From: Gemmatimonadaceae bacterium
GTDB taxonomy: Bacteria; Gemmatimonadota; Gemmatimonadetes; Gemmatimonadales; Gemmatimonadaceae
Length of the DNA: 60,353 nt
NCBI GenBank assembly: GCA_040901985.1
Contig: JBBDYC010000009.1
Span: 1 to 60,353 of the forward strand
Direction: 5' to 3'
The notes beneath the pieces were generated by a model, which did not search any database, was not told the origin of the DNA, and saw only the letters and a list, made by a program, of their open reading frames with translations. The position numbers and the translations under genes are program-made. This document shows positions 51,882-55,179 of this stretch, one piece after another (within the stretch, counting starts at the first letter, position 1; every line of letters starts with the position of its first letter).

Positions 51882-51963
51882 GCGTCGAAAGCTATGGCGC
51901 GTACCCGGCCAACGCGGAGGGGGCGCGTTCAGAGGTCGTCATCTCACTCGCTTTCGTCGCGCG

Positions 51964-52008
51964 CAATCGGCGTCCCGTTCAATCGGCGTCCCGTTCAATC
52001 GGCGTCCC
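51964..52008. repeat. 16-bp tandem repeat, about 2.8 copies
   Basis: CAATCGGCGTCCCGTT x2 + CAATCGGCGTCCC. Confidence 0.9.
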
Positions 52009-52152
52009 CCGCAACTCGCGGTTCACCCGGGCGCTTTCGGCGGCCACGCGCGGAATCACGCGCGACCAGCGGGCCGAGCGCGCGTCGCGCTCGATCCGGG
52101 CGTCGAGGAGGTCGGCGTCCTCCTCTCGCAGCATCTTCGGCGACCTAGGCAT
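51979..52152 (-). pseudogene. 57-aa antitoxin-like ORF, probable TA remnant
   Basis: MPRSPKMLREEDADLLDARIERDARSARWSRVIPRVAAESARVNRELRGTPIERDAD; TTGCGT-17-TATCAT 5 nt before ATG. Confidence 0.4.
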
Positions 52153-52186
52153 ATCCGATGATATGCCGAGGTCCCCGATGACGCAA
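52142..52186 (-). promoter_or_regulatory. Leaderless promoter overlapped by palindrome
   Basis: GACCTAGGCATATC-CGAT-GATATGCCGAGGTC (13/14 arms) spans -10 and ATG. Confidence 0.5.
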
Positions 52187-52212
52187 AGGTTCGGTAGTGG
52201 TACAGTTTGGCT

Positions 52213-52872
52213 CTAGGGCCGCGAGATTCGCGCTCGATCCCTGAAAACGTCGAACGATCCCCAACAGGACGTGGCCAAGTCGATTCCCTTTGGTGGAAAT
52301 CCGGCTTGAATGATCTTTAGTCCTCTCGCGTTCAGAAACTCGACGGCGGGCACGAGATCGCTGTCCAGCGTAGCCAGTACGGCGAGGTCATACGCCCCTT
52401 CCCACGCAAGTCGAATCATGTCGGTTGCGATGAGAGTATCGACCCCCTTCTCGACCGTCGATGTGATTGGCTTAGCGCAGTCGCCGCGATGACAGTGAGT
52501 GAGCGGACGATGGCACGCTGGGCAGTTGAGCATCCCGCGCGGTTTCCGTTCGCGGAGCTGCACGTTCACCCCCGGCTGGCGATCCAGCCAGGTGTTGACC
52601 CAGTTGCGGAACTTCGCGCCTTCAGGCGTCGAAGGGTTGTACGACGTGTAGATGATGACGCCGTCGAACGTGTGATTGCGAATGGACGCCACTTCTCAGG
52701 CCTTCGCGGCTAGCCACGGCCCCACCTTCTTCCAGTCGATCTTCACCCGAAAATCGGGTACGCCCCGCGCGAACGACTCTCGCTCGTTTAGTGACAACTG
52801 GAAATTCCAGTAGTCGACGAAAACGCGAACCCTCACGGGAGGGTTCGGGGGAGTGGTGACTGGGGCAGTCAT
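52213..52872 (-). pseudogene. NYN/PIN-fold RNase with Cys-rich insert; in-frame TGA at codon 59
   Basis: VFVDYWNF, CPAC..CHRGDC, EKGVDT, LDSDLVP all in one frame; TGA at 52698-52696. Confidence 0.8.
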
Positions 52873-52908
52873 CTTGGTCTCTGCGGCGGAGGAAGGGGTG
52901 ACGGGAGC

Positions 52909-53044
52909 AAAATACGGGGGACAGGCCCATTGAGCCTGTCCCCCGGGGTCACAATTATCAGCCGGACGGTTCTCCGCGTGCTGGGAGGGTCCAAACTGAT
53001 GGGCCGCAATGCACGGAAACTACTGTCTCTTGGACTCTTGTCAA
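52909..53044 (-). promoter_or_regulatory. NYN promoter, structured leader and terminator-like hairpin
   Basis: TTGACA-16-TAGTTT; GGGGGACAGGC/GCCTGTCCCCC 11-bp stem followed by GTATTTT. Confidence 0.6.
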
Positions 53045-53088
53045 GACAAAAGGTTTCCCGAAGCTGCAAACTAGTGCGGCCCAATACG

Positions 53089-53940
53089 TTAAACCTGACC
53101 CAACAGCCCGACGACTTCCTCCATCGTCCAAGCGTGATCGGCCACACCAGCGGCCATTGCGGGGGTCTGCTTGATGCCACCCTTGGCTTTGGTCAGCGTC
53201 TGGTGCGGACGACAGAAGTTGTAATGCATGAAGTACAGTGCTAGCGCGTGAGCGTGGTTTTCCATCTTCTTCGAGAATACGTTCGTGAGGCGGGTGAAGC
53301 GGCGCATGTTCATGAGCATCGTCTGGTTCTGGCGTTCGGCGTAACTCGTTGAAATGCGCTTCGGGTCAGGATTCCCCATGACCCATTCGGCCTGTGCGCC
53401 GATGATCTGCGGGGGGCTGTAGCGCGTCTGACCTTCCGGCGCTGGGCCGTAGATCTTCATCAACATCGCGTAGTCAACGCCGTTCCAGCCGAACGCCCCT
53501 TCGACGCCGCGCAGGTACGCGCGGTGACCGTCCGTCGTGAGCTGGACGCGGTGACGGAGGCGTGACGCAAGGTCCTCCATGAACAGCGCGGCGGCGTTCG
53601 CATCGCGCGTCCCAAGGTGCCAGCACGGGATGAGCTTCGTGTCCGCACAAATCGCCGTCCACGTCCACACGTCGCCACGTCCGCGCCCCTTTTCGTCGCG
53701 CGGGACATTCTTTTCCTTCGCCCCGACCCATGACCAAATCTCGTCGCATTCTATTGTGCGGCACGGCAGGTCATTGAGCGTCGCGCGTTGGTACTCCGCG
53801 CAGACCTCGCCAATGTCGGCCAGCAGTTTGAGGGCCGTGACCTTGCTGACCCCGATCATACGGGAGGCGGCAGAAACGGAGGCTCCGTCCACGAGGGAGC
53901 GGAGAAGGGCGGCGCGCTTTTCAGTCGAAAGTCGGTTCAT
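53089..53940 (-). CDS. IS1-family DDE transposase, single ORF
   Basis: N-terminal HTH; ECDEIWSWV, LTTDG, SYAERQN, RRFTRLT..FSKK. Confidence 0.92.
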   Translation of the reverse strand: MNRLSTEKRAALLRSLVDGASVSAASRMIGVSKVTALKLLADIGEVCAEYQRATLNDLPCRTIECDEIWSWVGAKEKNVPRDEKGRGRGDVWTWTAICADTKLIPCWHLGTRDANAAALFMEDLASRLRHRVQLTTDGHRAYLRGVEGAFGWNGVDYAMLMKIYGPAPEGQTRYSPPQIIGAQAEWVMGNPDPKRISTSYAERQNQTMLMNMRRFTRLTNVFSKKMENHAHALALYFMHYNFCRPHQTLTKAKGGIKQTPAMAAGVADHAWTMEEVVGLLGQV

Positions 53941-54341
53941 TGCTCAGTCCGGTTAGTGAAACTGAACACATATGCTTGTTTCTGCACTCGGGCGCAACCC
54001 CCTCTCAGACTCGCAACCGGGGGACCGAACGGATAGCAAAACCCCCCGGACTGGTCCGCAGCCACGAGGGGTAGACAACACCTTGGAAACCGACTACTCC
54101 TTAAAGCACGAGCCGAGCGCCCTTTTCTACGGGGTGCGCTCGGCTCGTGTGACACCCACACTGAACACGAAGTCCAGCGGGGCAAAAAACAAATGTCGTT
54201 GAGGAACTAGGAGGGGGGCGGCCCGACGGGGTTGCCCCCCTCCGCTATTTCAACCATGAAACACCAGACGCGCTACGTGTCAATACCTGTTAACCTAACT
54301 CTTGACACTTGGGAAGCAAGTGCCACTTTGCCGTCGTCCGG
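53941..54341. ncRNA. Multi-hairpin non-coding spacer in the IS, putative regulatory RNA
   Basis: Stems 54017-54049, 54068-54100, 54107-54149 (14 bp perfect), 54210-54243. Confidence 0.4.
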
Positions 54342-54557
54342 CTACTTCTTCCAACGAGCCGCTGCCGCCTTCCGGGCGATGACCCGCCGCGTGACCGCTG
54401 ACAGCTTCGCGGCCCGTGCCTCACCCCGTTTTGACTCCTTCGGATTGACGGGCGTCACCTCGGGCTCCTCCACCTGCTTAGTCGCCAGATCACCGACCAT
54501 CTTGGCGTGCTGGTTCACGTCGCGCGGACGCACTGGCTTGAGCGGTTTCTTTGGCAT
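54342..54557 (-). CDS. Small basic IS-associated protein (71 aa)
   Basis: RPRDVNQHAKMVGDLAT..GEARAAKLS..IARKAAAARW; -10-like TAGCTT 6 nt before ATG. Confidence 0.8.
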   Translation of the reverse strand: MPKKPLKPVRPRDVNQHAKMVGDLATKQVEEPEVTPVNPKESKRGEARAAKLSAVTRRVIARKAAAARWKK

Positions 54558-54639
54558 GACGCGAAGCTAAGAATCGCGGCACCCGTGCGCCACGCCCTCA
54601 TCTTAGCAAACTGTACCATTGCCAAAGGTTCGCCACGCG

Positions 54640-55179
54640 CTACCGGAAGAGCTCGTCCAGCTTGATCTCCAGCGCGGGTACATCGGGGCGCGGTTGCCAG
54701 CGGAGGGTGTCGGTGACGCGCTCGTCGTCGCCACCGGGGCGGATCGCGGTGACCTGGCGCTTCTCCGTGTCCACAATCCAGTACTCCGGGATTCCCCACC
54801 GAAGGTAGGCCGTGCGCTTGCTGACGAGGTCGCGGCGCTGCGTCGCGGGGGAGAGGACCTCGACGACAAGGGTCGGGAGCGGGAGATCCTCCCACTTCGC
54901 TGCGTCGCGCATCCCGACGCCGAGGAAGACGGCGATATCGGGTTGCAACTCGTTGTCGCCGTTTGGAACGGCCCCTGGGGCCGACGCAAAGCCTACCCCG
55001 TGGCGCCGGCAGTACGCCGAGATCAGGCCACCAAGCATCAGCGCCACCGCTTGATGCGGTATGGACGGGAGCGGCGTCACCAGCAGGTCCCCGTGGAGGA
55101 CCTCGTAGCGGTTGCCGTCGTCGGGGAGGCGCACCAGTTCGGCGCGGGTCCACGGTCGGGTCTTGGTGGCCATCTGCAT
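54640..55179 (-). CDS. Uma2-family endonuclease
   Basis: LPDDGNRYEV, QPDI, VVEVLSP, GIPEYWIVD. Confidence 0.92.
   Translation of the reverse strand: MQMATKTRPWTRAELVRLPDDGNRYEVLHGDLLVTPLPSIPHQAVALMLGGLISAYCRRHGVGFASAPGAVPNGDNELQPDIAVFLGVGMRDAAKWEDLPLPTLVVEVLSPATQRRDLVSKRTAYLRWGIPEYWIVDTEKRQVTAIRPGGDDERVTDTLRWQPRPDVPALEIKLDELFR

Follow-up and report, generated by a model that had tools for sequence, protein, structure and literature searches.

An IS1-type transporter element with a small basic gene and a broken NYN gene in a Gemmatimonadaceae genome

The element and its relatives

The window analyzed here is a stretch of 60,353 nucleotides from a Gemmatimonadaceae genome (assembly GCA_040901985.1, contig JBBDYC010000009.1), and its positions 52193-54623 are occupied by a mobile element of 2,431 bp that is related to the insertion sequence (IS) IS1 and carries genes in addition to its transposase. 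The element is bounded by terminal inverted repeats (TIRs) of 17 nt, which are identical at 15 of 17 positions with mismatches at 2 positions, and both flanks carry the identical 8 bp AAAGGTTC, the target site duplication (TSD). On the minus strand a basic open reading frame (ORF) of 71 aa is followed by about 400 nt without a convincing ORF, by a transposase ORF of 283 aa and by a gene for an NYN ribonuclease (RNase), whose stop lies 3 nt from the 17-nt TIR. The ends, the gene order and the position of the NYN stop had been proposed in an earlier note made from the sequence alone, and they were confirmed. Searches with blastn, tblastn and a TIR scan revealed one copy in the 2.64-Mb genome. 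The GC content of the element (0.58-0.63) is lower than that of the flanks (about 0.70), and the insertion is located just beyond the stop of a Uma2-family gene. A relative holding both flanks, and thereby the empty site, was not found among the relatives, none of which was close enough. The element is a genuine, single-copy mobile element with the following features:

52185 to 52192, no strand: copy of the TSD at the NYN end, from the identical flanking 8 bp
52193 to 52209, no strand: right TIR, downstream of the transposase and NYN genes, from comparison of the ends and the TIR profile of the family
52213 to 52872, minus strand: gene for an NYN RNase (LabA/DUF88-type) with a four-cysteine zinc-finger insert, broken by a TGA at codon 59
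52696 to 52698, minus strand: the premature TGA at codon 59, which separates the conserved D20 from the other invariant aspartates, D145/D151/D170/D172
52907 to 53012, minus strand: conserved small RNA before the NYN gene; unit 1 consists of a CAU..CCC strand and the hairpin 53000-52957, unit 2 of a linker and the terminator-like hairpin 52945-52915 with a U-rich tail
53017 to 53044, minus strand: sigma-70-like promoter of the RNA-NYN cassette (-35 box 53044-53039, -10 box 53022-53017), recognized by eye and by its matching layout in homologs
53089 to 53940, minus strand: single-ORF DDE transposase of 283 aa with an N-terminal three-helix helix-turn-helix (HTH), an RNase H fold, D66-D137-E202 and a beta-hairpin insert between the second D and E
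53941 to 54341, no strand: upstream cargo slot, here non-coding and hairpin-rich, with a perfect 14-bp stem at 54107-54149
53959 to 53997, minus strand: predicted transposase promoter with a -35 box at 53997, an operator half-site at 53979-53972, a -10 box at 53974 and a TIR-like site at 53968-53959
54342 to 54557, minus strand: gene of the 71-aa basic microprotein, a core gene of the family, probably leaderless, with a -10 box at 54569-54564, 6 nt before the ATG
54607 to 54623, no strand: left TIR, from comparison of the ends
54624 to 54631, no strand: copy of the TSD on the microprotein side, directly behind the stop codon of the Uma2-family gene, from the identical flanking 8 bp

The best NCBIfam match of the transposase was the IS1 family model NF033558 (E 7e-12), with 45.7 bits below the 100-bit cut-off. 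It is 27% identical to an annotated IS1 transposase (E 8e-15), and plasmid relatives with 50-54% identity are annotated as IS1 family transposases. The residues D66, D137 and E202 were invariant across the transposases of the family. A CxxC pair in the first 60 aa was found in 0 of 170 of them, and therefore the N-terminal zinc finger of IS1 is missing; together with the single ORF of 283 aa this confirmed that both the zinc finger and the frameshift are lacking, as had been claimed. An AlphaFold model (predicted local distance difference test score 86) contains three N-terminal helices (6-17, 22-29 and 33-54), an RNase H core and a beta-hairpin insert, and this predicted structure matches integrases and the ISCth4 transposase. 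The match to HTH_23 was weak, and a PDB sequence search returned nothing significant. Membership in IS1595 was considered and rejected (NF033547, 23 bits against a cut-off of 75). The spacing from the second D to E amounts to 65 residues versus 28 in one zinc-finger IS1 transposase and is thus 37 residues longer.

In ISMhu11-like elements this spacing is about 40-60 residues longer than in IS1. The ISMhu11 subgroup was reportedly described by Siguier et al. in 2009 as IS1-family transporter IS (tIS) having an HTH without zinc finger, a long D-E spacing and passenger genes inside the TIRs. The transposase would fit this subgroup, a label that we apply tentatively; we know of no conserved microprotein, operator or defence-biased cargo described for it, and none turned up in the literature search. 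Passenger-carrying IS1 elements without zinc finger are an already described kind, the transporter IS, a concept laid out in a passage of PMC9330008. A passage of PMC12428005 gives the features of canonical IS1, including a duplication of 8-9 bp and the repressor InsA, which is the transposase's own DNA-binding part.

GTDB genomes yielded 376 transposase relatives, and from the best 80 a collection of homologous elements with a catalogue of their cargo was assembled, as recommended in the earlier note. Judged by record titles, these relatives span Gemmatimonadota, Verrucomicrobiota, Acidobacteriota, Proteobacteria, Chloroflexota and others. Complete elements with the same type of TIR were present at 60 of the 80, nearly all of them with a TSD of 8-9 bp, and therefore the anatomy of the element exceeds chance. 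With viral-contig loci included, the number of complete elements was 105, with lengths of 1.3-4.6 kb. Cargo is located either between the microprotein and the transposase or after the transposase, and the upstream slot contains protein genes in most relatives. The cargo scan comprised 128 ORFs (126 of 148 called with at least 90 aa, and two added), some of which will be spurious; about half of the scanned proteins had no Pfam match. According to our own tally, 18 of the 60 complete elements carry toxin-antitoxin, methylase or defence-like genes, and the defence-type cargo includes RmrT/RmrA, HigB with a PD-Lambda-2B-like protein, HEC-09 NYN, PDC-M63, PIN, PemK and methylases. P63C cargo was found in 11 of the 60 elements and Clp/SDH-type proteases in 6. 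The idea of a compact cargo transposon that delivers toxin or defence-type genes is supported at the level of the family, but the RNase gene of this copy is broken.

Several further observations concern the cargo. RmrT/RmrA pairs and three-gene cassettes of HigB plus PD-Lambda-2B-like proteins occupy the upstream slot at loci L044, L051, L061, L065, L078, L080 and L084, proteasome-subunit-like cargo occupies the downstream slot at L041, L048 and L049, and ClpP/SDH protease-like cargo was seen at L038, L040, L041, L043, L070 and L085. Derivatives of 0.6-1.9 kb without a transposase, in which both TIRs are retained along with all or the start of the microprotein gene, and in some cases with cargo, were present at L234, L238, L261, L265, L269, L285, L291, L296 and L431, many of them in viral contigs. 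Five such derivatives have a perfect TSD, and L431 contains the same NYN cassette as the element described here.

The anatomy, the DDE fold, the 8-bp duplications and the exchange of cargo across relatives are direct observations. The element is a member of a widespread single-ORF, zinc-finger-less branch of IS1 type with exchangeable cargo, and the analyzed copy is a partly decayed transporter IS of known kind.

Microprotein, palindrome and cargo of the analyzed copy

The microprotein has an isoelectric point of 11.1 and contains 19 lysine and arginine residues. It is present in 89 of the 105 complete elements, and 64 of 86 plus-strand copies are located at most 130 nt from the left end. Using 144 distinct loci selected by the microprotein, a family transposase was detected within 4.5 kb at 83 of the 100 loci with enough flank. 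In the phylum the microprotein occurs in 40 of 401 genomes, a tally that includes the unpublished genomes G185 and G089. Relatives are annotated as 'histone H1', 'Histone H1 family' or hypothetical, and a single weak KGG match was obtained in 1 of 66 members. The structure model predicts a helix at the N-terminus and a basic, helical region at the C-terminus. The analyzed copy and its clade lack a segment, AVALGRxGG, that most relatives possess. The C-terminal basic helix also begins P63C and other proteins (phrog_2384, residues 7-36) and is a small mobile, probably DNA-binding module. At the start of P63C genes it was seen at L034, L035, L037, L039, L052, L058, L062, L068, L069, L074 and L090, and outside these elements it starts a Fic-like protein and other proteins (L160, L164, L165 and L166). 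A link of the microprotein to IS1595 was considered and rejected, with the microprotein in 0 of 20 other IS1595 loci sampled; the sole co-occurrence is explained by an IS1595 inserted into the microprotein gene of a family element (L322/L329).

Upstream of both core genes, microprotein and transposase, a -10-like box mostly lies at a distance of 6-7 nt from the ATG, and a Shine-Dalgarno sequence is rare. A strict promoter scan of the element listed no promoter, and the promoters given here were taken from the family alignment. In relatives a 20-bp palindrome, ATGCTTGA-N4-TCAAGCAT, is located at the start or promoter of the microprotein gene and at the transposase promoter. The palindrome was first read by eye in the regions upstream of the transposase. 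Counted in new loci, which had played no part in its definition, the site is present in 45 of 116 transposase promoters and in 61 of 162 promoter or start regions of the microprotein gene, with fewer than one in shuffles. The offsets from the ATG are -40, -30 and 0, and the first codons of many microprotein genes coincide with the palindrome. At MPxR starts the codon CCT was used in 25 of 37 cases versus 9 of 80 elsewhere, and this skew fits a constraint at the level of the DNA. Altogether, 108 sites were counted in 323 kb of elements versus 2 in 380 kb of flanks. A host regulator was also considered and is unlikely, given these 2 flanking sites and one above-threshold site in the element's own genome.

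The sites at the two genes occur together (both 41, neither 37, single 7 and 4). To account for descent, pairs were taken from a FastTree phylogeny of 100 transposases, from which five rows had been dropped (one duplicate, four short). Among 15 tree-independent pairs the transposase-promoter site followed the microprotein site 10:0 (p 0.002), and among 10 independent pairs it followed the presence of the microprotein 5:0. Comparison of the operator with the AVALG-type segment in 85 microproteins resulted in 49 + 30 concordant and 4 + 2 discordant cases, and again 10:0 among 15 pairs. Of the 89 elements with the microprotein, 80 contain the half-site; it was also detected in 5 of 6 elements that have the helix only as part of a P63C fusion and in 2 of 9 that have neither. 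The clade of the analyzed copy has neither the AVALGRxGG segment nor the full palindrome, but 9 of its 10 members have the half-site. A TIR-like motif beside this half-site is present in 10 of 10 members of the clade and in 10 of 105 elements overall.

The NYN gene at the right end is interrupted by an in-frame TGA, which splits it into 58 + 159 aa and cuts off the first catalytic aspartate, D20, conserved in 118 of 120 homologs; in this it differs from the description in the earlier note. With an X at codon 59 the protein is 86% identical to a full-length homolog. Among 120 homologs this position holds Cys in 80, Ala in 25, Ser in 6 and Phe in 4. The cysteines of the insert (C117, C120, C127 and C132) are invariant in 120 of 120. 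An assembly error as the source of the TGA was not supported: the stretch is also covered, at a depth of 22.6 and without any difference, by an independent contig from the probable source run, although this run may be the source of the window itself and contigs drop rare variants. The NYN gene is therefore probably dead in the analyzed copy. The protein matched only NYN in Pfam, a PDB sequence search with it gave nothing significant, and no copy was found in viral contigs and phages. The subfamily is sporadic (5 of 401, 6 of 351 and 4 of 301 genomes), resides on small plasmids and in IS elements, and in at least 3 of those 15 genomes the gene is broken; a fourth TGA may be terminal.

The 216 nt before the NYN gene fold better than shuffles (z -4.3). 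The conserved layout consists of a promoter and two units of a CAU..CCC strand plus a hairpin, the second of which is terminator-like. This pattern matched at 18 of 20 NYN loci versus 0-2 in shuffles; 16 were kept, and two matches (L436 and L430, as called) were judged spurious. All 14 of the 14 pairs show double-sided changes, and 96.8% of the cells are paired versus 39-44% in slid controls. An RNA model matched in 2 of 141 genomes, both times at NYN genes, once a training copy and once a sequence near-identical to a training row. In front of plasmid NYN genes the RNA was also found in reverse orientation at L429:1102-1174 (E 0.002) and, weakly, at L430:636-708 (E 0.54). A weak match of the model was additionally noted at L355:10181-10245. 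No Rfam family matched the RNA. By analogy it looks like the RNA antitoxins of type III and AbiF systems and is a candidate RNA antitoxin or attenuator.

The structured RNA of the earlier note had been placed in the 400-nt spacer, but the conserved RNA lies before the NYN gene instead. The spacer does fold better than shuffles (z -5.4), and in this respect the claim stood; it is not conserved, and apart from short hairpin matches no homolog was found in Rfam, the fetched loci, 150 family genomes, phages and plasmids. Other short spacers have unrelated structured content with similar folding (L188 z -6.6, L195 z -6.0). The 400-nt spacer is non-conserved content of the cargo slot and not a core RNA. 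Two observations were made on such spacers elsewhere. The 375-nt spacer of L188 combines a 30-codon ORF with strong hairpins (z -6.6) and resembles a type I toxin-antitoxin locus, and tRNA-like sequence was recognized by eye in the upstream slot at L371:4540-5000, where it truncates the microprotein, and in the spacer of L195.

In the surroundings of the element, a 25-bp hairpin (52131-52184, 84% complementary) abuts the TSD and overlaps a 57-aa ORF (52152-51979) that has no match elsewhere; it may be the terminator of the Uma2 gene or part of the target. A 16-nt unit is repeated three times in tandem (51955-52008) between an asparaginase II gene and the element. At a distance of about 45 kb from the Uma2-family gene (54640-55179), the same contig contains a cluster of four close paralogs of it (G000:C9 97407-102381), and up to 13 Uma2-family genes per genome were counted within the genus.

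The overall reading and its alternatives

From comparison of the sequences we consider it fairly likely that the element is an IS1-type transporter IS with the order TIR, microprotein, cargo slot, transposase, cargo slot, TIR, in which the microprotein acts as a repressor and the downstream cargo is a cassette of NYN gene and RNA antitoxin. Cargo separates the transposase from the left end, and the transposase would for this reason have a promoter of its own. The microprotein would take over the job of InsA by binding the palindrome over its own promoter or start codon and at the transposase promoter, and would repress both. The half-site is probably what the C-terminal basic helix of the microprotein recognizes, and binding of the full palindrome would require the AVALGRxGG segment. 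The clade of the analyzed copy seems to have lost the segment together with the full palindrome and to have kept the half-site and the TIR-like site, the latter possibly bound by the transposase; control by the microprotein may be weakened or altered here. The downstream cargo would be a self-contained cassette of promoter, two-hairpin RNA, terminator and NYN RNase. It most likely pairs a toxin of the type III/AbiF kind with an RNA antitoxin, and in this copy the nonsense change has probably switched off the RNase. Binding and repression by the microprotein and toxicity of the NYN protein are what we infer from these comparisons.

Several points weigh against this reading. The analyzed copy lacks the full palindrome (its transposase promoter scores -3.1 at best), so that repression in this copy rests on the relatives. 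The full site occurs in only about half of the microprotein-bearing elements (45 of 89), and taken by itself the 5:0 that links the site to the presence of the microprotein falls short of significance (p 0.06). The motifs were initially recognized by eye, part of the alignment had already been seen when the segment pattern was chosen, and the alignment of the RNA had been trimmed to fit the proposed structure. The half-site lies next to the -10 box and is similar to the inner end of the TIR, and it could belong to the promoter or serve the transposase. The microprotein matched no family in Pfam, NCBIfam or PDB. The only defence match of the NYN protein is a weak one to HEC-09 (E 3e-9, 72 residues), and HEC-09 gave no protection against phages when tested, according to a passage of bioRxiv 10.1101/2024.01.29.577857. 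Passages of PMC5499597 list NYN.COG1432 as of unknown function and give no established toxin role for it, which speaks against a role in defence.

The palindrome might instead be bound by the HTH of the transposase in an autoregulation, with the microprotein as a transposition cofactor or a DNA-bending or anti-termination factor. The half-site and the inner TIR end share G.TTGA, TIR-like sites are more frequent near transposase starts than in controls and agree more closely with the TIR of their own element than with permuted TIRs (7.39 vs 7.09, 0 of 200 permutations), and in canonical IS1 the repressor is indeed the DNA-binding part of the transposase. We nevertheless regard this as improbable, because the palindrome is absent in 9 of 9 elements truly without the microprotein and its helix, although transposase and TIRs are near-invariant, and because it tracks the microprotein segment in all ten informative independent pairs. 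The microprotein is probably an InsA-like repressor that binds the palindrome; the previous suggestion of a regulator or accessory factor is backed for the regulator by the covariation with the palindromic site. The RNA before the NYN gene could be only a cis-acting leader, either a feedback attenuator or the self-cleavage site of a housekeeping-type RNase, and the NYN protein no toxin. The terminator-like hairpin directly before the gene would suit such a leader, as would the status of NYN.COG1432 and the inactivity of HEC-09 mentioned above. For a cis leader, however, the RNA at L429, and probably L430, would point in an impossible direction, away from the NYN gene; moreover, the RNA unit is repeated, and the gene itself is sporadic, mobile and repeatedly broken. 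A mere leader is in our view rather unlikely, and an RNA antitoxin is preferred. It is also rather unlikely that the 400-nt spacer is a functional RNA cargo: its several strong hairpins and the RNA-like, similarly folding content of other short spacers would fit, but no homolog was found in the collections searched, the upstream slot holds protein genes in most relatives, and the spacer is not part of the core. Finally, readthrough of the NYN TGA by selenocysteine insertion or suppression would leave the RNase active in this copy. The TGA aligns with the cysteine that predominates in homologs, and the rest of the gene is intact. The position is variable and not a zinc ligand, selA and tRNA-Sec were not found in the 99.97% complete genome, and a stop at codon 59 occurs in no other homolog among the loci examined; the selenoprotein reading was rejected on these grounds, and an active RNase in this copy is highly improbable.

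A broader proposal is more tentative, and we put it forward as a possibility that the evidence so far leaves below even chances. The IS branch could be a cross-phylum shuttle of 1-5 kb for toxin-antitoxin and defence cassettes, controlled by unrecognized sequence-specific repressors of about 75 aa (mis-annotated as 'histone H1') with a 20-bp operator, and one of its cassettes, zinc-finger NYN plus two-unit hairpin RNA, could represent a new class of RNA antitoxin. A literature search in listings, abstracts and passages found no description of the microprotein, the operator or the NYN RNA. Relative to this literature, the proposed link between microprotein and operator and the leader RNA of the NYN gene appear to be new. 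If correct, these readings would provide a function and a binding site for a common unnamed microprotein and show in what way an IS1-type element found a substitute for control by InsA after cargo had parted the transposase from the left end. They would also define a very small DNA-binding module that is fused to P63C and Fic proteins as well. The NYN cassette would extend RNA antitoxins to the PIN-like fold and open a first direct test of bacterial NYN function. With its fixed ends and two cargo slots the family is an easy source of candidate defence genes.

Comparison with known systems

Canonical IS1 (E. coli, 768 bp, insA/insB) shares with the element a related DDE transposase, TIRs and a duplication of 8-9 bp. 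InsA is a small DNA-binding product near the left end that represses the promoter of the element, and the microprotein is its proposed analogue. In contrast to IS1, the element has no zinc finger (0 of 170 in the family) and no frameshift, contains a single ORF of 283 aa and is 2,431 bp long, and elements of its family measure 1.3-4.6 kb and have two cargo slots. A separate gene, unrelated to the transposase, encodes the putative repressor, and the transposase has a separate predicted promoter. In relatives the annotation 'IS1 family transposase' stands next to genes called 'histone H1' or hypothetical. Transporter IS likewise contain passenger genes inside the TIRs, and the ISMhu11 subgroup is said to have an HTH without zinc finger and passengers up- or downstream, as found here.

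The NYN cassette resembles the type III toxin-antitoxin systems (ToxIN, CptIN, TenpIN) and AbiF with RCd22 in the order of promoter, repeated structured RNA, intrinsic terminator and RNase gene; a passage of bioRxiv 10.1101/2025.04.15.648962 describes the same layout of promoter, two motifs, terminator and toxin for AbiF and type III systems. The protein has a zinc-finger NYN/PIN-like fold and not that of ToxN or HEPN, and the repeats conserve a short single-stranded motif and the stem geometry, not the sequence. The cassette contains no toxin of the ToxN, CptN, TenpN or AbiF families and no catalogued RNA, and the likeness would concern only the way it works; in this copy, moreover, the toxin gene is broken by the TGA at codon 59. 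HEC-09 and NYN.COG1432/LabA proteins share with the NYN protein a domain with conserved acidic residues, but the match to HEC-09 is weak and restricted to 72 residues, and the NYN protein has its own four-cysteine insert and leader RNA. P63C proteins carry at their N-terminus the C-terminal basic helix of the microprotein, but they comprise about 340 aa and are encoded on the opposite strand, whereas the microprotein is a stand-alone protein of 71 aa.

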